Shown: in pieces, positions 15,940 to 63,727 of the stretch
How the letters are laid out: each line of letters begins with the position of its first letter
How positions within the stretch are numbered: the first letter of the stretch is position 1
DNA from: Actinomycetota bacterium
GTDB lineage: Bacteria > Actinomycetota > Acidimicrobiia > IMCC26256 > PALSA-610
DNA: 64,000 nt
Direction of reading: 5' to 3'
Assembly: GCA_041691275.1 (NCBI GenBank)
Contig: JBEPUZ010000001.1
Coordinates: 21,400 to 85,399, forward strand
Made by a program: the position numbers and the translations under genes
Notes under the pieces: generated by a model
The model's database searches: none
Seen by the model: the letters and a program-made list of their open reading frames with translations, nothing else
What the model was told of the DNA's origin: nothing

Positions 15940-16233
15940 TCACTCGACCACCATGTAGTCTTCCGCCAACATGTCCGTCTGACTCGCAAGCCACGGGACG
16001 AAGCATGCGTCGACCGTGCGCATGCCGATCCACGGCAAGAGCGAAAGCCTCGCGATGGGGGCCCCGTCCGGATGCTGCGGGACGAACGCGACCGGGTGAG
16101 CGGCGTCCGCGAGCGGCCCGGCGTACCAAGGCTTCGCGGGAACGAGGCCGAGCCACATCTCCTTCCCATTCCAGCCAGCGCGCGAGACGCGCTTGCCCTC
16201 CTTCAACGCGGCGATCGCATCTCCGAAGTTCAC
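15940..16233 (-). CDS. DUF2829 / Tad2-like (Thoeris anti-defence 2) protein
   Basis: NFGDAIAALKEGKRVSRAGWNGKEMWL...PWLASQTDMLAEDY. Confidence 0.8.
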   Translation of the reverse strand: MNFGDAIAALKEGKRVSRAGWNGKEMWLGLVPAKPWYAGPLADAAHPVAFVPQHPDGAPIARLSLLPWIGMRTVDACFVPWLASQTDMLAEDYMVVE

Positions 16234-20634: not shown

Positions 20635-23600
20635 TCACCGCCACAACGCCTCCCTGTCGGGCGCGTTCGGGATCGTGATGTCGGCGTAGCAGAGCCGTTG
20701 CTCCTGACCCTCCATGTCGGAGGCGCGGCGCGCGTCCGAGCACGCCTTGTCGAAGTCGGCGAAGATCTCCGGCACGGCCGCGAGCACGTCGACCGTGACC
20801 TCATCCGCGAGCTGTCCTTCGCGGTGCGTTCTGCTCTGGAGCTGTTCCATCTGCATGCCCGTCGTCGGCGTGCTCACGATCAGGTTCTGGTTCCAGCCGT
20901 CTTGCAGGTTCAACCCCGCCGAGTTCGCGTCGATGCTCGCGATCATCGGCGTGTGCTTGGGGTGATCCTCGATGAAGCGGCCGTTCTGATCGAGGCCTTG
21001 CTGCGCGTAGTACGACAGCCCCGTGTACGCGCTCAGTGCCTTGCCGAACTCGACGAACTTCACCCAGATGATGCCGGGATTCTTCGCCGCCCACGCCTTG
21101 CACGCGTCGAGCGTCGCGCGAGAGAGCCAGATCGCCTCCTTGTTCTTCTCGGCGTCGAACGTCGGCTCCTCGCGCATCCACTCCTCGTAGACGGTGCGCA
21201 TCGTGCGGCCGGCCATGCCGAGCTCGTCGCCCCACGGATGATCGTCGTACACGCCTTCGAGGATCGCGCGCTCGACCATCGCCGCGGACATGATGCCTCG
21301 TCGATTCGTCCGCAGCACCTCGCGCACGACCGAGGCCCACTCGCGTCGGAGGCGTCGCCACTGATCGGGCGGGGCGGGGTTCCATCGGTAGAAGAAGCCG
21401 CAGTTCATCGTGCGGAGGTGCCGCCACAGCTCAAGCTGGTCGACGATCTCGACCTTGTCCGGGCGCTCCCACGTCATCTTCATCTGCGCGACGTGCGCGG
21501 TGATGGCCGGGTCGTTCACCACGAGGGGGCTTATCCGAAGCGAGACGCCGAGCGCGCCCTCCTGCGTGGCGATGACACCTGGAGTCTCCGTCAGGCGCCT
21601 CCGGTAGGCCTTGCGGACGCCGCGCAGTCGGTCGGGCTCCGCGAGCTCCTCAGGGGAGCACAGCTCGAGCAGGACGCCCGGATCGAGCGTCGGGCCCTTC
21701 TCGTCGGGATCGCGCTCCCACCACTTCACGTCACCCTCGGCGTCGAACGAGATCGAGGTCTCGTCGTCGAGCGCGCTCGACCACTCGACGAGCGACTTGA
21801 ACTCGCGCGGGACGGGCGATCCGTCGCCTAGGCACCATCCGGCGATGTGCGCGTAGTCCTTGATCGAGCGCTTCGCGATCGTGCCCGACATGGCGACGAC
21901 CTTGGTCTCCGGATTGGCGTCCAGATAGGCACTCAGGCGCTTGACCCGCGCCGCGGCGCGGTTTTTAAGGCGGTGGCACTCGTCGAAGATGATGACGTCC
22001 GGACGCTGGATATTGAGCTCGTTCTCGGACTGCATCAGGCCCAGAATCTCGTAGGACATGACCCGGCAATGCGGGATGTACCAGTCCTTCCGATAGCGCG
22101 CCGCGTCGCGTAGCGTCTTTTCCTTCAAGGCCGCAGGGACCACCAGCAAAGGACGCACTGAGTTGAGTGCCAAGAAGCCCAGAAGGCTCAATAGCGTATT
22201 GTGTACGATGATCCCGTCGCACACGAAATTGCGCGTGGCTGGGACACTGAGATCGGCCACGGGCCGTTCACCTACGCCCACTACGCTGACTGCCTGCGTC
22301 CAGATAACGTCTGCATACGCCATCCAAGCGCGTTGCCCTCGATACCCCAGGGCTTCGATCACATTGCGAAATCGACTCCGGCTGCACCAGCCATCGCCGC
22401 CTACCATTAGGCCCGCCCTGAGCATCATTCTGACGGTGTCGCTCCAACCCATCTCCTTGGCCATACTATCGGCCATGCGTCCGTTGATCGGCACCACGTC
22501 GACATTGGAGTTGCGCACGATGTCCCTCAAGCGATCCGTCACGCCGGAGCTGGCTTTCTCCTTGCCTAGAACAGGCCCTATTCGAGTTCCGAACGTGACG
22601 GCCTCTCCTCCCGTAATCGTGAGGCGCCAGGCATCGAACTCGCGCTTCACGCCGCCTTTGGTGTACGACGAGCGCTTGTATTTCTTCCGGCTATGGATGC
22701 CGAGCCTGAGCAGCAGAAACTTGAGATCGTATATCATCTTCTCCGAGGCCAAAACGATCTCAAAACCGTTAGCGGTAGTGTAGCCATCGCAGGCCCAGAA
22801 TCGATTCAGAAACAGAGCGATCTGATGATCGGGCAGCCCCCAGAACTCCGCAGGAAGGCGTTTGGCTTTCGCGAGTCCGTGGAGTCCCCATCGCTCTCTG
22901 AACGCATGCGCTTTACGTACCGAGTAGTCCTGACATCGAACCCCCGCCGCGGCTCGCTTCAGCGAGCTCTGCGTTGCCTGGGGGCGGAAACCTGTGATTC
23001 GTTCGGCCACATCCAGAAACTCGGCAACGACAGAGGGCGTCCCGTTGGTGAAAGACGTAGTGCTTTGCGAGACTCCGCCGTCGCTGAGTAGGTACGACGC
23101 GAACAAGACCTCATCGTCCGACGCGATCGTGACCGTCTCGCCGGCCTCTTGTCTGATTATTCGAGGTGTCGCGACTAACGTCCCTGTGGCGATGCTCGAA
23201 GCGTACTGCCACCCGTTCTGCGTCAGGACAGGGTGGTCGATACTGACTACGGTCTCGGCCCCGTCCGCCAGCACGAGTCGCACGCACGGCTTAGATCCAG
23301 ACGGAAAAGCCACCGCGTCCTGCGTTCGGACGGGGCCGTCTCCCTGCAGGGACTTCACCTTCAAAGGTCCGAACTCACCTGCGGTTCTGCGCTTGCCGGT
23401 GGCCACGTCGTATATTTCGCTGGCGTAGTCAACGCACTTGCCAGATCCGGTACGCGCACTGACGAACAATCCCTTGCGCGCATGCATCTCCCAGAGCGCG
23501 GCCGTCTGCACCGGGCGCAAGGTCGCCGTGCTCCCTGGGCGTCGAAGGTGCTTCACGAAGTACGCCTCGACCTCGCGCTGATCGCGCGACTCCCACTCGC

Positions 23601-23685
23601 GACGAGGCAACGCCTTGATGCGCTGGAAGTCGTAGGAGCTCAACACGCCGCGTCGGTTGCGCGGCTTGGGCAGTAGTTCGCTCAC
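20635..23685 (-). CDS. SNF2-family helicase containing an intein
   Basis: LRPVQ, TGSGK|T, DECH, SGT, GLNLQ, QSRTHREGQ motifs. Confidence 0.9.
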   Translation of the reverse strand: MSELLPKPRNRRGVLSSYDFQRIKALPRREWESRDQREVEAYFVKHLRRPGSTATLRPVQTAALWEMHARKGLFVSARTGSGKCVDYASEIYDVATGKRRTAGEFGPLKVKSLQGDGPVRTQDAVAFPSGSKPCVRLVLADGAETVVSIDHPVLTQNGWQYASSIATGTLVATPRIIRQEAGETVTIASDDEVLFASYLLSDGGVSQSTTSFTNGTPSVVAEFLDVAERITGFRPQATQSSLKRAAAGVRCQDYSVRKAHAFRERWGLHGLAKAKRLPAEFWGLPDHQIALFLNRFWACDGYTTANGFEIVLASEKMIYDLKFLLLRLGIHSRKKYKRSSYTKGGVKREFDAWRLTITGGEAVTFGTRIGPVLGKEKASSGVTDRLRDIVRNSNVDVVPINGRMADSMAKEMGWSDTVRMMLRAGLMVGGDGWCSRSRFRNVIEALGYRGQRAWMAYADVIWTQAVSVVGVGERPVADLSVPATRNFVCDGIIVHNTLLSLLGFLALNSVRPLLVVPAALKEKTLRDAARYRKDWYIPHCRVMSYEILGLMQSENELNIQRPDVIIFDECHRLKNRAAARVKRLSAYLDANPETKVVAMSGTIAKRSIKDYAHIAGWCLGDGSPVPREFKSLVEWSSALDDETSISFDAEGDVKWWERDPDEKGPTLDPGVLLELCSPEELAEPDRLRGVRKAYRRRLTETPGVIATQEGALGVSLRISPLVVNDPAITAHVAQMKMTWERPDKVEIVDQLELWRHLRTMNCGFFYRWNPAPPDQWRRLRREWASVVREVLRTNRRGIMSAAMVERAILEGVYDDHPWGDELGMAGRTMRTVYEEWMREEPTFDAEKNKEAIWLSRATLDACKAWAAKNPGIIWVKFVEFGKALSAYTGLSYYAQQGLDQNGRFIEDHPKHTPMIASIDANSAGLNLQDGWNQNLIVSTPTTGMQMEQLQSRTHREGQLADEVTVDVLAAVPEIFADFDKACSDARRASDMEGQEQRLCYADITIPNAPDREALWR
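22198..23436 (-). mobile_element. Intein (413 aa) with LAGLIDADG homing endonuclease
   Basis: Begins CVDYAS after GSGK and ends IIVHN before T; block B SIDHPV; YLLSDG and FWACDG motifs; different codon usage from flanks. Confidence 0.92.
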
Positions 23686-40929: not shown

Positions 40930-41655
40930 ATGAACGACGTCGGCGTCATCGAACCGATCCCGGGCCAGCCCGGCCTCTTCCAGGATCCCTCTGCCCCGGG
41001 CAAGGTGATCAACATCCGCGACTTCCGCGAGGGCGACAAGTACGACTCGGTCGCGCTTCCGACCGGCGCGATCGCGTTCGGCACGACCTTCACGTTCTTC
41101 CAGAACCTGCAGGGCAAGAACAACGGCCCGCAGGGCAACCTCGACACGAACATCCGCACTCAGTCGAAGCTGAGCGCGGGCGAGTCGATGATCCTCGACC
41201 GCATCGGTCTGTACATCTGCGCGTCCACGGGCATCAGCTTCCCGTCGCCGCAGGACTACAAGACCATCGTCGACAACGCGTACTACCGCCTGAACATCAA
41301 CGGCCTCCTGCAGGACGAGGGCCCGGCGATCAAGTTCCCGAGCGGGTACGGTCTCTACGGCCAGACGCAGGAGAGCGGTCAGGGCATCGTCTCGATCGGC
41401 GTGCCGGCGACGGCGAGCGCGGCGCGCCTCATCCGCAAGCAGCTGCTGAACCAGAACCACGAGATCGAGGGAACGCTCACGTTCCCGCAGCGTCAGTGGC
41501 TCACGCAGGCCCCCTCGGCCGGCGGCGGCGGCTTCTCGACGGCGGCGCTCACGCCCACGATCGTGGTCCAGGCGCAGACCGAGCCCCCGAGCAACTGCGC
41601 GGTGGTCGTTCGGAACTTCCTCCACGGCCTCATCCGCTCGGCGGTCAGCAAGTGA
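40930..41655 (+). CDS. Putative major capsid protein (single jelly-roll type)
   Basis: 241 aa beta-rich ORF with YDS..FFQ..DTN..L..I motif, strongly biased codons and two downstream UUCG hairpins; fold is inferred. Confidence 0.55.
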   Translation: MNDVGVIEPIPGQPGLFQDPSAPGKVINIRDFREGDKYDSVALPTGAIAFGTTFTFFQNLQGKNNGPQGNLDTNIRTQSKLSAGESMILDRIGLYICASTGISFPSPQDYKTIVDNAYYRLNINGLLQDEGPAIKFPSGYGLYGQTQESGQGIVSIGVPATASAARLIRKQLLNQNHEIEGTLTFPQRQWLTQAPSAGGGGFSTAALTPTIVVQAQTEPPSNCAVVVRNFLHGLIRSAVSK

Positions 41656-56781: not shown

Positions 56782-57014
56782 ACTCGAGCGCGCATCGCGC
56801 GAGCTGATGGTTCGCGAAATCATTGGCATTTTAACCATGTGAGCGATCTCACGAAAAGGCTTTGAATAAAAAGAGGGGGGTCCCGTCTAATAGGGGCGAA
56901 CGACGAAACGGGAAGATAGGGAATCGGAGAGAATCGACCGACCCTGAGAATATCCGGTAAGTCGGTGCGTATCAGTAAGCGGGCCTGCGAAGCCCTAGCT
57001 AGGGAGATTGAACC

Positions 57015-57383
57015 ATGACGACCACGAAGATCGCCCGCGAAGCCAACAAGGGCCCGGGTAAGTACGAAATCGCCCGCGAAGCCGTCAAGGGCCCGGGTAA
57101 GTACGAAAGCGAGCCCGCATGGGTCGCGTTCGCTTGGGAAGAGATCGTGCTGCACGGATGCGCACGCGAGGATCTCACGGATCCCGACGACGAAGAGAGG
57201 ACGATCTCCCTCGTGGATCTGGACGAAGAGATCCGCGCCGCGTTCCCCGACGCGCCCGAGCATGCCGCGCTGTATCAGCGCTCGGATGGTTTCGTGTGCC
57301 GCGCCGATTACGATGCGTGCATGCGCTTCGTGGCGGAATTGCGCTTCGTGGCGGAATCGGCGGAGACTTCCGAGGACGAGTGA
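57015..57383 (+). CDS. Acidic early protein
   Basis: GGGAG RBS in repeat; internal tandem duplications. Confidence 0.7.
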   Translation: MTTTKIAREANKGPGKYEIAREAVKGPGKYESEPAWVAFAWEEIVLHGCAREDLTDPDDEERTISLVDLDEEIRAAFPDAPEHAALYQRSDGFVCRADYDACMRFVAELRFVAESAETSEDE

Positions 57384-57574
57384 ATAAGGATCGAGTCTAG
57401 TACGTCGAATCGGTGCGAGGTCGTACGGGGCCTGGACGTCGTAGTCCGCTCGCATCATAGGGGCCCGCGAAGCCCTAGGGAGATCGTCATGAGCGAACAA
57501 CGGACTACGCCCATCGGACGGCCGGACGAAACCACCACCACCGCCACCGCCACCACCACCAAAGGACAGAGACC

Positions 57575-57988
57575 ATGACCACCAAGACCCTCACGATCAC
57601 CATGAGCGAGCGCCGCCCCGTCACGCTCGTCGCCGACGAATGGCCCGTCGTCGCACGCGCGGACTGGCACTCCGGCGAGCACAAGTCGCAGGCCAACGAG
57701 ACGGCGCACATCGTCGTACGCGAGCACGACGACGGTCGACGCATCGTCTACAGCGTCCGCGATCGTGGCGACGGGGGCATGCCCGCCGGGTACCGGGCCA
57801 CGGCCGGCGGCTACATGGTCGGCACCATCGCCGGCGACATGCGCCAGCCGTCGAGCGGGGGGCCGCTCACGTCGGCGCACCCGGACGAGGCCGAGACCAT
57901 CCGCGCCATCCGACGCGCGGGGGGCGTCGTGGGCATGGACCGCCTCGCCGACGAGTGCATCGCCGATCTGCCGGCTGAGTCGATCTGA
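57575..57988 (+). CDS. Hypothetical early protein
   Basis: AAGGA RBS; VREHDDGRRIVY motif. Confidence 0.7.
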   Translation: MTTKTLTITMSERRPVTLVADEWPVVARADWHSGEHKSQANETAHIVVREHDDGRRIVYSVRDRGDGGMPAGYRATAGGYMVGTIAGDMRQPSSGGPLTSAHPDEAETIRAIRRAGGVVGMDRLADECIADLPAESI

Positions 57989-58164
57989 CGCGCGCGCGCT
58001 CGTCGACGCCGTCTGACACCGCAGCACGCGGCCAGAGTCGCCTCGCTTGGTTTTCTTTTGAATAAGGATCGAGTCTAGTACGTCGAATCGGTGCGAGGCG
58101 GTAAGGGGCCTGGACGTCGTAGTCCGATCGCATCATAGGGCCCGCGAAGCCCTGGGAGGTGTCT

Positions 58165-58800
58165 ATGCAAGTGCCGAGCCTTTTGGACGATCGCGTCCTG
58201 CGTCACGTCGAGATCGACGGACGGTATCGTCTCCTGCTCTGGGATACGAATCGCCGCGACCGATACGGCAAATCGACGCTGGGGTACGCGTTCTCTCGCA
58301 TCGGCGAGAGTGAGCCGATCTTCTCGGCCGAGGATTACCACGTGCCGGGGTGCGTGGACGATGACGCCGCTGTACGCGGTTTGCTCGGATTCCTCACGCT
58401 TCGGGGGGGCGACACGGACTCCGATTACTTCGCGAACTACACGGAACGTCAATGGGCGTTTTCGCGCGGCGACGCGGAAGAGATCTCGTGCTGGGGTATG
58501 GACGAGCACGATCTAGAAGGGTCGTATCCGCTTGTCGACGTGGACGAGACGCCGGCGCCGCTCGCGCGCCTTGAGGGCTGGCACGACACGCAAACGGGCG
58601 GAGGTTGCACGGCATGGCAGATCGATCTACCGGGCGGCCGGTACGCGCTGATCACCGATGGCGACGCGAGCATCCCGACACACGAGGGCGATCTCGTGAT
58701 CGGCCTGTACAGCGACGAAGGCGATGCCATCGCCGATGAGTCGTGCTCTACCCTGGCCGAATGCCTCGCTTGGTTTTCTTTGAATAAGGATCGAGTCTAG
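58165..58800 (+). CDS. Hypothetical early protein, possible two-domain fusion
   Basis: GGAGG RBS; FLTLRGGDTD..YF and TGGGCTAW segments. Confidence 0.7.
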   Translation: MQVPSLLDDRVLRHVEIDGRYRLLLWDTNRRDRYGKSTLGYAFSRIGESEPIFSAEDYHVPGCVDDDAAVRGLLGFLTLRGGDTDSDYFANYTERQWAFSRGDAEEISCWGMDEHDLEGSYPLVDVDETPAPLARLEGWHDTQTGGGCTAWQIDLPGGRYALITDGDASIPTHEGDLVIGLYSDEGDAIADESCSTLAECLAWFSLNKDRV

Positions 58801-58888
58801 TACGTCGAATCGGTGCGAGGTCGTACGGGGCCTGGACGTCGTAGTCCGCTCGCATCATAGGGGCCCGCGAAGCCCCGGGAGATTGAGT

Positions 58889-59212
58889 ATGAGCGAACAA
58901 CGGACTACGCCCAAGGGCAAGATCGATATCATCCGTGATCAATGGGTGTGCGTCGATTGCCTGTTCGCGCTCGCGAATGGCGAGTATCCCGACGACGCGA
59001 CACGCGCGGCGGAGATCGAGGCGGGCGAGACGCGCGAGCTACCCTATCGCTGGGCGCTGGACGGGCCGCACGAAGGAGAGTCGGAGGAGGCGGATCAGGA
59101 TCCGTTTTCGTGGCGCCCTTGCGCGTGCTGCGGATCGCGTCTCGGCGGATCGAGGCACCGTGCGGCGTTGATCCTTGCTCTTGTCGAGTACAATCGATCG
59201 GTGAAGTCGTGA
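58889..59212 (+). CDS. Zn-binding early protein
   Basis: CVDC...FSWRPCACCGSRLGGSRH. Confidence 0.7.
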   Translation: MSEQRTTPKGKIDIIRDQWVCVDCLFALANGEYPDDATRAAEIEAGETRELPYRWALDGPHEGESEEADQDPFSWRPCACCGSRLGGSRHRAALILALVEYNRSVKS

Positions 59213-59430
59213 CCCCGGCCCGACGGCCGACCCGGTGGGGGTCCTCGCCGAATCTCGAGACGAGCCCGTCGATCAAGGGAGTGATCGCGGCGTTCTACTG
59301 CACGAAGCCCGAACGGATCACGCTCACGGCCGAGCCCGGCGGGTGGTCGATCAAGAACGGCGAGCGCGAGATCGACGGTACGTGGGTCCGGTTGATCAAG
59401 GGCCGGTACGTGCTCGAGAGTCGGTCGTGA
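59209..59430 (+). CDS. Hypothetical early protein
   Basis: GTGA coupling. Confidence 0.5.
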   Translation: MTPARRPTRWGSSPNLETSPSIKGVIAAFYCTKPERITLTAEPGGWSIKNGEREIDGTWVRLIKGRYVLESRS

Positions 59431-59526
59431 CCGAGCCCGGCGAGCACGGCTGGCTTCGCGACTCCAGAACGGGCGCGCTCGTGTCGTGCGACGGTCCCGA
59501 GATCGAGTGTTGATCGGGCCCCGAAC

Positions 59527-59838
59527 ATGATCAAGCAAATCCGATACTCGGAATGTGCCTACGCCGCGCCGAATGCGTGGGGCCTCGGCCAGATCCTGAA
59601 CAAGTACGACGCCGATCACGTTCACGTGATCTCGTATCCGGCGGACAACGATTGCGCGGCCGATGGCGTCGCCGTTGTGCTCGGGTTCCCGACGGCGCGC
59701 GAAGCTGAGATCGCGGCCGATGCCTACATCGCGAACCGCTACGGTAGGCTCGCGACGGTCCGGCACACATGGAGCCCGGTCTACACCGATCCCGCCCGCT
59801 GGCCGGAAGGTCGTCCGTTGCCGCCTGACGAACGTTGA
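59527..59838 (+). CDS. Hypothetical early protein
   Basis: Stop codon is the TGA of the repeat. Confidence 0.6.
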   Translation: MIKQIRYSECAYAAPNAWGLGQILNKYDADHVHVISYPADNDCAADGVAVVLGFPTAREAEIAADAYIANRYGRLATVRHTWSPVYTDPARWPEGRPLPPDER

Positions 59839-59877
59839 ATAACCGGACGCGCCTAGCGTCCTAGTAGCGAGGCTCCG

Positions 59878-60357
59878 ATGACCGAGCACTATTTCTTCTC
59901 GAAGCGGGCGCTCGACTCGAAGTCTCGCAGCGCCGACGACGCTGATCTTCCGTGGCTCAGGAAGCGCTTCCCGACGCACTTCCGCGTGACTGCGTTTCGC
60001 GCGCGGGAAGGCGTGCCGCGTGATCCCGGGCTCGAGCAGCACTTCGACACGGACGCGCGCGGGTTCAAGGCCGCGAAAGCGTACGCGGTCTCGCTCGTTT
60101 CAGACGGCACCGCGACGAACGCGGGCGTGGACGTCGAGGCGCAGTTCCCGTCGCACTTCTACGTTCGATATCGAAACATCGGTGGTTGGACCACTGTGAT
60201 CAGCAACGTGTTCGAGGCGGAAGCGGGTCCATCCGAGCGCGAACAAGCCGAAGAGGATCTCCGCACGGCTCGACGTACGGGCAACAACGACGCAGTCTGG
60301 GCACTCGAAAAGCGTATTCGTGTGCTCGGAGGTTGCCGCCTGACGAACGTTGAATAA
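59878..60357 (+). CDS. Hypothetical early protein
   Basis: GAGG RBS after repeat; stop codon is the TAA of the next repeat. Confidence 0.6.
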   Translation: MTEHYFFSKRALDSKSRSADDADLPWLRKRFPTHFRVTAFRAREGVPRDPGLEQHFDTDARGFKAAKAYAVSLVSDGTATNAGVDVEAQFPSHFYVRYRNIGGWTTVISNVFEAEAGPSEREQAEEDLRTARRTGNNDAVWALEKRIRVLGGCRLTNVE

Positions 60358-60727
60358 CCGGACGCGCCTAGCGTCCTAGTAGCGGGCCCGCGAAGCCCTA
60401 GGGAGATTGAACCATGACGCCGGGTAAGTACGAAAGCGAGCCGTCGTGCGAGTGCTACCGCTGTCACGTGGCGCGGGTGTCGACGTGACGCGCCGCGTGG
60501 CGCTGCGCTTGTCGTGGTGGGTCTACTCGGGCGGCGTGCCGATCTACGCGGTCGACACCCGCGCCGAAGCACGCACGCTCGCCGATGCGTGGCGCGCCGA
60601 TCTGCCCGGCGCCCGCGTCACCCTCAGCACCGCACGTCATCGGTCCGCCGACGACGCGATCGCCGCGCATGCGCGGGGCGAGGTCGCACCGTGACGCGGG
60701 CCCACGAAGCCCTAGGGAGATTGAACC

Positions 60728-61168
60728 ATGACGACCACGAAGATCAAGCCGCTCACGAAGAAACAGATCGCGGAGAACGAGAAACAGGAAGCGATCGCGA
60801 ACCTGAGGCGCGTCGCGCCCCCGGGCTCCACGATCTTCGGGATCGTGCGGAGCGTCGCACGTTCGGGCATGAGCCGGACGGTCGACTTCTACGTCAAGTC
60901 GGCGGATCCGGCCTATCGCGACGACGCGGGGCTGCGGTACCTCTCGGGATGGTTCGCGACGGCGGGCGGGTACTCGCGCGACAAGTCGGGCGCCCTGAAG
61001 ATCGGAGGGTGCGGGATGGATATGGTGTTCGGCACCGTCTACAACGTCGCATCGGCGACATGGCGCGGGACGAAGGTACCCGAGGCCGGCAAGCGAAACG
61101 GGAGGCGGCTGCGCGCCGATTCGCAGAATGACTCGCCCGGCTACGTGTGGAAATCGCGGGCGCTGTAG
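60728..61168 (+). CDS. Hypothetical early protein
   Basis: RSVARSGMSR and GCGMDM motifs; repeat RBS. Confidence 0.7.
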   Translation: MTTTKIKPLTKKQIAENEKQEAIANLRRVAPPGSTIFGIVRSVARSGMSRTVDFYVKSADPAYRDDAGLRYLSGWFATAGGYSRDKSGALKIGGCGMDMVFGTVYNVASATWRGTKVPEAGKRNGRRLRADSQNDSPGYVWKSRAL

Positions 61169-61249
61169 GATCGTAGCGCTGTAGGATCGTAGCGCCCGGC
61201 CAGGGACCGGAACGGGGGGCGGCACCCCGTGGGCGCTTGGGAGAATGTC

Positions 61250-61699
61250 ATGCGTGCAACCCTCGTTTCTGTGATCCTCGCCCTCTCGGGCTGCGCCGTC
61301 ACGATCGGCCCGTTGCCGGTCAGCGACTCGGGCCCGATGGGTGATGCGGCCCCCCAGGGCGACGCGGCGCCGACACCGGCCCGCGACACCGGCGCCGATG
61401 CGGGCCCGGCCCTACAGGGCGACGCGAGCCCGATCCCCGACGCGAGCTCGGCGCCCGACGCGGGCGACGTCCCGGCCGACTCCGGGGTCACGTGCGACGA
61501 CGTCTGGAGGGCCTACGCGGCGGCCGCGGCGCGCCTCGGGTGCACGCCGTACTTCGGCGGGTGCCCGATCGTGCGGAGCTACGACTACTGTTTGGCGCAC
61601 CTTCAGGCCGCCACGATGGCCGACGACGGCGGCACGGGCGGCGCGGCCTGTACGGCGCTCGCGTCTCTTGAGAGCGAGTGCTCGCGGGCGCAGCTGTGA
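61250..61699 (+). CDS. Myxobacterial-type lipoprotein
   Basis: Lipobox LALSGC, DSG/DAA/DTG/DAG linker, Cys-rich C-terminal domain. Confidence 0.7.
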   Translation: MRATLVSVILALSGCAVTIGPLPVSDSGPMGDAAPQGDAAPTPARDTGADAGPALQGDASPIPDASSAPDAGDVPADSGVTCDDVWRAYAAAAARLGCTPYFGGCPIVRSYDYCLAHLQAATMADDGGTGGAACTALASLESECSRAQL

Positions 61700-61747
61700 C
61701 GGCCCCCAAGGCCGCCGCGAGCGCGATAGGTAAGCACACAGGAGAAC

Positions 61748-61939
61748 GTGATGGCCAAGTACAACCGCCGCATCGGACACATCCACTTCAACGTGGGCAC
61801 CATTGGAGGGGGCGTGAACGCCTGCCCGTCCAACGCCCTGCTGTACAGCAAGTCCACGGCCCTAGTGACGTGCCCCAAGTGCCAGACCACCAAGGCCTAC
61901 AGGGCCAAGGTGGAGGCCGGTCTCCAGGGGCCGTCATGA
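61748..61939 (+). CDS. Small Zn-finger protein
   Basis: IH..AC..VTCPKC; AGGAG RBS. Confidence 0.55.
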   Translation: MMAKYNRRIGHIHFNVGTIGGGVNACPSNALLYSKSTALVTCPKCQTTKAYRAKVEAGLQGPS

Positions 61940-61973
61940 CCACCATGGCCAAGGACCTCGGGGCGGGGCGGTC

Positions 61974-62531
61974 ATGACCGAACGTGATGGATCTCGAACG
62001 CTGCGAGCGCCCACGGCAGTCACGCCGCGCGAGCGGAAGGGTCCGCGCGACCGCTTCACACACTCGATCCAAGCCGGGCACTACAAGCTGCGCGAGCACT
62101 TCATCGGCTCGAAGGTCGACCGGCGCACCACGGGGCCGGGCCTCTCGACGCCCGACGGGCTGAAGGAGGGCACGCGCCTCTCGATCATCGAGGCACCGTC
62201 GCTCCTGCGCGAGGGCAGCTCCGGCACAGTGCTGGAGCTTTGCGCCCCGTTCGCGCTCGGCTTGTCGAGCATCGCCTACGCGACGAAGCAGGCTGAGGGC
62301 ACCACGTGGTTCTCGTCCGTGCCCGACGACATCATCCGAATCTTCGACATGATGGAGCCGGACACGAGCGAGGAGACGTGGCTAGACCACACGCTCGGGC
62401 TCGGGAGGTATTCGAGGGGCTGCGGGCACGACGTGCTGCATCGTCTGCTCAAGACGGGCGTGCTGACGCGCGAGCAGATCGTCGAGGCGCGCGCGGCGAC
62501 ACGGCGGAGCTGCGCACGATGGAGCAGGTGA
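61974..62531 (+). CDS. Hypothetical protein
   Basis: 185 aa ORF in array direction. Confidence 0.5.
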   Translation: MTERDGSRTLRAPTAVTPRERKGPRDRFTHSIQAGHYKLREHFIGSKVDRRTTGPGLSTPDGLKEGTRLSIIEAPSLLREGSSGTVLELCAPFALGLSSIAYATKQAEGTTWFSSVPDDIIRIFDMMEPDTSEETWLDHTLGLGRYSRGCGHDVLHRLLKTGVLTREQIVEARAATRRSCARWSR

Positions 62532-62676
62532 ATCAGTGGGTGAGCACGCTCGCCCTCATGACGAGCCCGATGGCGCGCGCAGCGCCTCGGCGATGGCGCC
62601 ACGTCCGACGACATGTCGGGTGCGCGGGAGCAGGGCGAACCGGACGATCACAACGAACAGCGGACGAGGTCGAGCA

Positions 62677-63285
62677 ATGAGTACCAAGGCGGCAAAGCGC
62701 GAGAGCGCCCCGGTTCCGAACGAGCAGGGCCTCGCCCTGGGATCGATCGGATTTGGTTTCGTGCCCCACGAGTCAGAGGCGCACTTCACCGTTACGATCG
62801 GCGCGAGCGACATCGTGATCAGCGAGCACGCGCATTGGTCGGGAAGCTTGGACGACGACCTGGTCACGTTCGGCCCAAGCACTGACCACGTTGCGCGTGT
62901 CCGGCTCGATCGCCTGAGGTGGGACCGCATCGTGCTCGAGATGGAGCAGGAGCTTAACGGCCGACTCCGGAAGCGGGGTATCCCTGCTGCGAGATTCAAG
63001 GGCGCTCGGGTACCGATGGGCCGACTGTTTGGAAAAGAGGTCGTCCTCCTCGCGTGGGCCGTGGAAGACGCCGACCCCGCGCTCTGCTCGCACGCGGTCA
63101 CGAATTGGCTCGGACTGGCGCCCGAGGAACGATGGTGGCTATACACCATGACGGCGGCGGCGACAGGACATGCGACGCTTCATCGCGGCATCGGTTGGCG
63201 AAAGGCGCTCCATTTCGCTCTGACCGAAAACCCCGTGGCCGCGTTTCGAAGCGGGCGTGCGACGGTCCCGAGATCGAGTGAATAA
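62677..63285 (+). CDS. DUF3780 family protein
   Basis: IGFGF, FGKEVVLLAWAVED, NWLGLAPEERWWLYTMT, GWRKAL.FAL.ENP. Confidence 0.85.
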   Translation: MSTKAAKRESAPVPNEQGLALGSIGFGFVPHESEAHFTVTIGASDIVISEHAHWSGSLDDDLVTFGPSTDHVARVRLDRLRWDRIVLEMEQELNGRLRKRGIPAARFKGARVPMGRLFGKEVVLLAWAVEDADPALCSHAVTNWLGLAPEERWWLYTMTAAATGHATLHRGIGWRKALHFALTENPVAAFRSGRATVPRSSE

Positions 63286-63340
63286 CCGGACGCGTCGAGC
63301 GTCCTAGTGTCGGGCCCGCGAAGCCCGGGGAGAGAAGAGG

Positions 63341-63727
63341 ATGAGCAACCGTCAATATCAGGTCTACCGGACCACCACGTCAGGCGCGGTCGCGATCGAT
63401 AGCGCTCGACGAGGCGCGACGCTTGCTCGCGAGCGCGGATGGCGCGGTGTGGATCGGGTCGTTCAACGGCACTCGCGTCGTGTGCGTCGAGACGGAGTCG
63501 ATCTCGTGACCCCCGACACCAAGCCCGGCTTTTACTACGTCTCGGTCGTCGACGGCGCCCGCCGAGCGTTCGTCAAAGGCCCATACCCCGATCACGCGGC
63601 CGCGCTCGCGGCGGTCGACTCGGTCCGAATCGAGGCCGAGTCTCGAGATCCGCGCGCCGCGTTCTACGCGTTCGGCACGGCGCGTTGCGACGAGGAGATC
63701 GCGGCCGTGTTGGGGCGGCCGTCGTGA
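63341..63727 (+). CDS. Hypothetical early protein
   Basis: Repeat RBS; YYVSVVDG..GPY..H..AL..V..DPRA.FYAFGT in the C-terminal half. Confidence 0.6.
   Translation: MSNRQYQVYRTTTSGAVAIDSARRGATLARERGWRGVDRVVQRHSRRVRRDGVDLVTPDTKPGFYYVSVVDGARRAFVKGPYPDHAAALAAVDSVRIEAESRDPRAAFYAFGTARCDEEIAAVLGRPS

Follow-up and report, generated by a model that had tools for sequence, protein, structure and literature searches.

We describe a solo gene of the DUF3780 family in a 64,000-nucleotide stretch of DNA (the window), which corresponds to positions 21400-85399 of contig C1 in a metagenome-assembled genome (MAG). DUF3780 proteins are the MtsB component of MANTIS (synonym Gao_RL), a type-2 DUF499-centred system related to BREX (10.64898/2026.09.23.753747; PMC12839542). 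To judge by its sequence, the window gene is best explained as a virus-borne MtsB, captured from an operon and now retained within an array of repeat-bounded cassettes as an accessory gene that varies from strain to strain. The main features of the locus are the following:

62677-63285, + strand: solo DUF3780 (MtsB-like) gene with a truncated C-terminal tail, 202 amino acid residues (open reading frame (ORF), Pfam, PADLOC and NCBIfam matches, conserved core, AlphaFold2 (AF2) model)
63279-63343, + strand: intergenic repeat module supplying the stop codon of the DUF3780 gene (repeat families D2 and D3, motif map, alignment A3, folds)
56863-63343, + strand: array of small ORFs without known family, parted by copies of the intergenic module (repeats, motif map, alignment A3)

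The window gene encodes a DUF3780 protein with a conserved core

The DUF3780 ORF opens with the ATG at 62677 and closes with the TAA at 63283-63285 on the + strand. The start codon is supported because the nearest relative, protein P0002, opens with the same N-terminus. The gene takes its stop codon, TAA, from the TGAATAA with which the repeat module begins, and as 63279-63343 belongs to the repeat family, the first-pass annotation was right to describe the gene as ending in the array repeat. Read in order, the module consists of TGAATAA, a hairpin at 63288-63304, a second hairpin at about 63310-63328 around GCCCGCGAAGCCC, a GGAG-rich, Shine-Dalgarno-like stretch and the ATG of the next ORF.

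The family assignment, originally made without database searches, is confirmed by profile hidden Markov models: Pfam PF12635 (DUF3780) matches residues 25-189 with E 3.6e-37 and 128.4 bits (cut-off 27), and two PADLOC DUF3780 models score 114.5 and 103.7 bits. The protein falls below the cut-off of the NCBIfam equivalog NF042961, 'anti-phage-associated DUF3780' (126.9 vs 200 bits), and PHROGs hold no family for it. A TrxC identity was dismissed, the NCBIfam match behind it being weak (E 0.007).

The conserved core residues that we checked in DUF3780 (FGF, NxRL, GKE..LLAW.ED, EERWWL and GWR) are found in the window copy, as are all 48 invariant columns of the 30-sequence alignment A2. Conservation reaches 85% or more in 49 columns across 103 operon copies; of these the window copy has kept 45, including E150-L155 (EERWWL) and G173-R175 (GWR), and differs at four positions: H35A, W107F, L122V and R179H. 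We considered F or L at position 107 as a change specific to solo copies and rejected it, since operon copies make up 11 of the 20 in which F or L occurs there.

The AF2 model of the protein (predicted local distance difference test 91.0, predicted template modelling score 0.85) places strands at 36-41, 45-51, 71-78 and 111-114 and has six helices. Compared by description, the model matches the alpha+beta fold of PMC12839542, a four-stranded sheet packed by helices; the PDB copies searched yielded no match to the crystal structure. MtsB is reported as a stable dimer with a 2.6 Å structure and the interface pairs W159-E156, S167-A190 and G177-D188 (10.64898/2026.09.23.753747). We infer from motif spacing that the EERWW...GWR region of the window copy holds this interface; the W159-E156 pair would fall in EERWW, a placement made by the same spacing rather than by aligning the Pseudomonas protein.

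Partner genes are absent from the element and from its MAG

Type-2 BREX-related systems combine a DUF499 ATPase, an N6-methylase and an HKD-helicase, with DUF3780 as a stand-alone component that is present in 1090 of the 1120 taxa (98%) having such a system (PMC12839542). The partners of MtsB are given as the DUF499 ATPase, a DUF1156-type methylase and a PLD-helicase (PMC12839542; 10.64898/2026.09.23.753747). The canonical gene order is DUF499, DUF3780, DUF1156, as seen at locus L027. The window gene lacks this context: it is not flanked by a DUF499 ATPase and a DUF1156 methylase, and no PLD-helicase is near it.

Contig C1 is 86,128 bp long and its ends overlap by 55 bp, which makes it a circle of 86,073 bp. 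Local profiles built from the L027 operon detect no DUF499 or DUF1156 fragment on C1 even at E<=10. Because C1 is a closed circle without either gene, partners lying just outside the window, the possibility that the first-pass annotation had itself named as fatal to its idea, are excluded. In the MAG as a whole (4.6 Mb, 412 contigs, 95% complete) DUF3780 was found once, DUF499 and DUF1156 not at all; the gene is indeed alone and without partners, on the element and in the genome binned with it. The only Walker A motif that a scan of C1 returned sits in the primase-helicase.

Solo copies are rare in cells and enriched on viral records

We surveyed relatives at the best 80 genome loci, the best 80 metagenome loci and 34 IMG/VR loci and in 50,697 GenBank phage records. 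DUF499 adjoins DUF3780 at 78 of the best 80 genome loci, the exceptions being L055 and L063. A partner gene is present at 77 of the best 80 metagenome loci, the remaining three being too short to judge, and no relative among these 80 is more than 54% identical to the window copy. The IMG/VR loci divide into 25 operons with complete DUF499-DUF3780-DUF1156 sets and nine solos (9/34); the 146 ORFs neighbouring the nine solos include terminase, portal, Sak4, RusA and anti-repressors. Solo DUF3780 copies are thus rare in cells and enriched on viral records, where the survey of viral solo genes proposed at the outset yields the nine IMG/VR loci and the Proteus phage Pm34. That DUF3780 normally sits in an operon with DUF499, DUF1156 and a helicase agrees with our own locus counts, with PMC12839542 and with the MANTIS preprint. 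The parts of the preprint (10.64898/2026.09.23.753747) drawn on here hold no passage on 'phage-encoded' or 'orphan' copies, and those of PMC12839542 none on 'solo' or 'prophage' copies.

L055 and L063 are genome contigs in which no DUF499 or DUF1156 lies within the available DNA (for L055, 9.9 kb upstream and 1 kb downstream). Unlike the viral solos, both retain the full C-terminal tail motif described below.

Proteus phage vB_PvuS_Pm34 (KY420199) is the single match among the 50,697 phage records. Its solo DUF3780, gp4, is 37% identical to the window copy over 80% of the query and shows that such a gene also occurs in a cultured phage. Like the window copy it is tail-less, stopping 8 residues past GWR. 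The gene directly upstream encodes gp5, which matches the final 174 positions of the DUF499 profile with 111 bits, and we take the gp5-gp4 pair as a captured fragment of a MANTIS operon, comprising the end of the DUF499 (MtsA-like) gene and the gene that follows it. No such DUF499 remnant is retained on the window element. The two also differ in that gp4 belongs to another DUF3780 clade, beside IMG/VR operon copies, and in that Pm34 is a lambda-like siphovirus. In the GenBank record the Pm34 locus (L012) spans positions 1105-2193; gp4 and gp5 are both annotated as hypothetical and adjoin lysis genes.

The window copy is nested among operon copies

The origin of the gene was followed in an unrooted tree of 117 DUF3780 copies (IQ-TREE quick search, LG+G4), in which several solos sit on long branches and are placed with uncertainty. 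The window copy (P0001) and P0002, which are 75% identical, form a pair with a Shimodaira-Hasegawa-like approximate likelihood ratio test (SH-aLRT) support of 100. The stem of this pair is long, at 0.85 substitutions per site where the median tip measures 0.15. The pair is sister to the operon copy L024 (SH-aLRT 96) and nested among operon copies, and therefore the window gene was captured from an operon, as had been proposed when it was called a captured subunit. On well-supported branches of the tree the label 'viral solo' requires at least six origins. The tree thus supports both capture of the window gene from an operon copy and the view that like captures have happened repeatedly.

Identity between P0001 and P0002 extends to 46 of the 49 positions conserved in the family vs 105 of 152 other positions (Fisher p 2.4e-4). 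This concentration of identity at the conserved positions indicates that constraint has continued in this pair.

Viral solo copies lack the C-terminal tail motif of operon copies

We compared the tail, defined as the residues from the GWR motif to the stop, in 103 operon copies and 11 viral solos. In operon copies its median length is 48 residues (interquartile range 37.5-58), and it is 28 residues or shorter in 4 of the 103. The viral solos have tails of 27 (window copy), 28, 8, 10, 8, 21, 14, 15, 14, 11 and 76 residues. We further defined a hydrophobic tail motif (LPLF, EIFRL, DLFRL and similar) lying 18-40 residues after GWR; crudely scored, it occurs in 91 of the 103 operon copies and in both genomic solos, and in none of the 11 viral solos. 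The window copy, whose tail reads ...AAFRSGRATVPRSSE, is among those without it. Viral solo DUF3780 copies without this motif, as scored here, are to be counted as a new observation. Seven phylogenetically independent pairs could be drawn from the tree; in about 5.1 of them the solo member has the short tail and the reverse holds in none, a trend that is suggestive and not significant.

The cassette array differs between near-identical strains

Three further features concern the array and its content:

61706-63207, no strand: 1502-bp stretch missing from a near-identical strain of another study (run X2 contig)
61974-62531, + strand: upstream ORF of 185 residues in the same repeat-bounded cassette, no known family, with a paralogue at C1:551-1099
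63341-63727, + strand: downstream ORF of 128 residues, no known family, no Pfam match

Nine of the ten copies of the repeat core on C1 lie within window positions 56983-63314, all on the + strand, and the array extends across the contig junction into C1:1-about 5000. Some of its cassettes are paralogous. No sigma-70-like promoter was found, terminator-like sites are not in excess, and the repeat hairpins fold no better than shuffled sequences (z -0.9 to 0.06).

Contigs from public sequencing runs show that the DUF3780 gene is present in some strains and absent from others. A 5001-nt contig of run X2 (depth 14.7) joins 61705 directly to 63208. The 1502-bp gap takes the ORFs 61748-61939 and 61974-62531 together with DUF3780 codons 1-177; the final 78 nt of the gene stay behind, as does the repeat. 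In run X3, a 231-nt contig matches 62657-62862 without a difference. Elsewhere in the array, run X4 has a joint at the repeats, from 56998 to 58889, and in a contig from these runs the stretch from 58025 to 60445 is replaced with 156 other letters. These joints suggest that cassettes are shuffled through the repeats between near-identical strains and that the array is a mosaic.

T4-type phages carry comparable promoter-stem-loop (PeSL) cassettes, small family-less genes flanked by a repeated regulatory stem-loop module, and their strains likewise differ by shuffled whole cassettes. The array described here differs from PeSL cassettes in its repeat sequence, in having no recognisable promoter and in belonging to another virus lineage.

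The element that carries the gene

C1 carries genes of phage type for replication and nucleotide metabolism. It shares 10-12 core genes, among them the polymerase, helicase, exonuclease, recombinase and proteins of 241 and 185 residues, with three relatives from IMG/VR, which measure 82.7-101.9 kb and all have direct terminal repeats and a CheckV completeness of 100. The description of the gene as carried by a virus holds in so far as these phage-type genes and three complete viral relatives speak for it; what it does not find on C1 is a recognisable terminase, portal or HK97 capsid protein, and the Walker A scan brought up no packaging ATPase either. C1 is probably viral, a conclusion that is supported indirectly. 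The most conserved gene of the element may fill part of this gap:

40930-41655, + strand: protein of 241 residues, predicted beta-sandwich, candidate capsid protein and marker of the virus family

Other proteins of the element are divergent. The DNA polymerase has four weak phage matches only, at 30% identity or less, and as a query found no IMG/VR relative; an ORF of 441 residues found no match in GenBank phages by tblastn; and a protein of 741 residues has no usable match in the ESM Atlas. A 40%-identical relative of this last protein lies in a genome of the MAG's order (G057:C66:152-2083, locus L214) and may point, weakly, to the host lineage of the virus group. The helicase of 1016 residues at 20635-23685 (- strand) reads ...GSGKC, followed by a long insert, and Pfam Intein_splicing and LAGLIDADG_3 each match one member of the ORF set; assigning these matches to the same ORF from its sequence, we see in the helicase an apparent intein that includes a LAGLIDADG endonuclease. 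The element also encodes methylases of its own (Pfam MethyltransfD12 and Dam matches), which belong to families other than DUF1156. A Tad2-like protein (Thoeris anti-defence 2, PF11195; 77 bits) is encoded at 15946-16230 (- strand), adjoining the DNA polymerase gene.

A possible anti-MANTIS role

In the MANTIS preprint, MtsC needs MtsB and MtsA for methylation, and restriction requires MtsA, MtsB, MtsC and MtsD together (10.64898/2026.09.23.753747). MtsB gives no DNA gel shift and does not appear to read the modification; its contacts with the other Mts proteins are transient, and the authors call its mechanism unclear (10.64898/2026.09.23.753747). The same preprint notes that some phages escape MANTIS and invokes anti-MANTIS mechanisms that are still unknown; twice it writes 'DUF3870' for the MtsB family, probably a slip for the DUF3780 used by Pfam, NCBIfam and PMC12839542, and one that keeps the preprint out of sight when DUF3780 is searched for. 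The window copy is unlike the MtsB of these systems in lying outside an operon, in a viral accessory array and with no MtsA, MtsC or MtsD on the element or in the MAG, as well as in scoring below the NCBIfam equivalog cut-off and lacking the tail motif.

An action of the window protein against MANTIS is the best of the readings considered, possible rather than probable, and would most likely be that of a tail-less poison subunit, close to the dominant-negative mimic that the first-pass annotation had in mind. Dimerisation of the protein, its contact with MANTIS proteins and its effect on defence are predictions. Expressed during infection, it would form mixed dimers with host MtsB or compete with MtsB at MtsA or MtsC; lacking the tail, it would not complete the activation step, and restriction of viral DNA would be blocked, as by a poison subunit. 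Such a block would be expected because restriction needs all four Mts proteins (10.64898/2026.09.23.753747). We prefer this reading because restriction requires MtsB, the dimer-forming core is kept, the truncation recurs in unrelated viruses, and anti-CRISPRs derived from cas genes set a precedent. Recurrent tail loss in viral solos combined with a retained core lends some support to an anti-defence, dominant-negative function.

The precedent is that viral orphan cas genes act as anti-CRISPRs by way of defective complexes (Katz et al., 10.1101/2023.06.24.545427). Like them, the window gene is a homologue of one subunit of a multi-protein defence system that stands alone on a mobile element, and a defective complex is the proposed mode of action. 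It differs in that the defence system is another one, that no recognisable anti-defence cluster surrounds it and that its role is predicted from sequence. Looser parallels are lambda Ral, a small viral protein that counters methylation-based restriction, and Ocr. The latter acts against BREX (as cited in PMC12839542). What these two share with the proposed role is that small viral proteins disarm methylation-based restriction; in sequence and fold they are unrelated to the window protein, Ocr being a DNA mimic and Ral no homologue of a host subunit.

Several observations weigh against the anti-MANTIS reading. The sign test is weak for the independent pairs (p 0.031-0.375, median 0.0625). P0002 runs 39 residues longer than the window copy at the C-terminus, and because it keeps this longer tail the truncation of the window copy must be recent; downstream of the window stop, a search for a remnant of the P0002 tail returned low-complexity noise only. 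Recombination at the repeat may have produced the truncation incidentally, and neutral decay after loss of the partners, or a changed function, would equally be expected to lead to tail loss. The ten cassette ORFs around DUF3780 have no Pfam match at E<=0.05 and belong to no known anti-defence family, and the Tad2-like gene lies 46 kb from the DUF3780 gene, outside the array. None of the three complete IMG/VR relatives (0/3) carries the cassette array or a DUF3780 gene, and as a near-identical strain has lost the gene too, it is dispensable. The gene has a G+C content at third codon positions (GC3) of 0.75, against an element median of 0.84. The MAG, 95% complete, contains no MANTIS system that we could find, and DUF3780 occurs in none of 200 other genomes drawn from its order and in 1 of 400 from its phylum. 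This last point is weak evidence: DUF3780 is found at least 582 times in 185,579 species genomes, about 0.3%, and because the global rate is this low, its absence from order and phylum is uninformative. We therefore set aside a host lineage without MANTIS as an argument against anti-defence.

A DUF3780 core repurposed for a viral role outside MANTIS, such as that of a dimeric co-factor to a DNA enzyme of the virus, would have lost its tail along with partners that had become irrelevant. The failure to find MANTIS in the MAG and in the genomes sampled from its order fits such a role; so do the long stem (0.85), expected after a change of constraint, and the methylases encoded by the element. 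But nearly all positions tied to the operon role are kept (45/49), the viral methylases are of families other than DUF1156, and there is no sign of a conserved viral partner: the genes nearby are strain-specific and family-less, and none of them recurs beside DUF3780 at other loci. We consider repurposing unlikely.

In our estimate it is just as unlikely that the gene is a decaying passenger, a recently transferred fragment of a defence operon without selected function and heading for loss. The clean 1502-bp gap that removes the gene from a closely related strain, the tail truncated at the repeat and a GC3 under the element norm could all be read in this way, and in Pm34 a DUF3780 directly behind a C-terminal DUF499 piece of 174 positions resembles a raw captured operon fragment. 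The intact reading frame with all core motifs speaks against decay, as do the concentration of conservation at family-constrained sites in the 75%-identical relative (p 2.4e-4) and the recurrence of intact solos in at least six viral lineages.

Markedly less probable is a methylation booster: by analogy with lambda Ral, viral MtsB would tip host MtsABC towards methylating incoming viral DNA, an anti-defence by hijack. In vitro methylation works best when MtsA and MtsB outnumber MtsC, and with MtsB there is an additional early burst of ATPase activity (10.64898/2026.09.23.753747); the conserved core of the window copy would also be in keeping with this. Restriction needs MtsB as well, so extra MtsB need not favour methylation, and the missing tail argues against a fully functional MtsB. 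Least probable of all, to our minds, is that the gene works with unknown partners from the array in a device for defence or superinfection exclusion that the virus carries: viruses or proviruses do carry MANTIS as cargo, given the complete sets at 25 of 34 IMG/VR loci, but neither the cassette nor its vicinity holds an ATPase, methylase or nuclease partner, and the sole Walker A motif of the contig belongs to the primase-helicase.

Implications

Extended beyond the window copy, the anti-MANTIS reading leads to a wider proposal, which we regard as doubtful, though less so than the alternatives above. At least six unrelated virus lineages, this one among them, would have captured MtsB copies independently, and these tail-less proteins would be the first directed against MANTIS, poison subunits that keep the dimer core without a C-terminal docking motif, and the tail would be the functional contact of MtsB with MtsA or MtsC. 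MANTIS was characterised only in 2026, by authors who call the part played by MtsB unclear and hold that mechanisms against MANTIS must exist (10.64898/2026.09.23.753747). As viral solos are truncated alike in several lineages, a single experiment would cover both poisoning by tail-less MtsB and the tail as the missing interaction element. Should the proposal not be true, the window gene would still illustrate cleanly how a piece of a defence operon moves by way of viral accessory cassettes. If it is true, contact of the tail with MtsA or MtsC would be the step that published work has left unresolved, and the co-option of defence subunits as inhibitors, so far known for Cas proteins, would reach into BREX-related immunity based on methylation.
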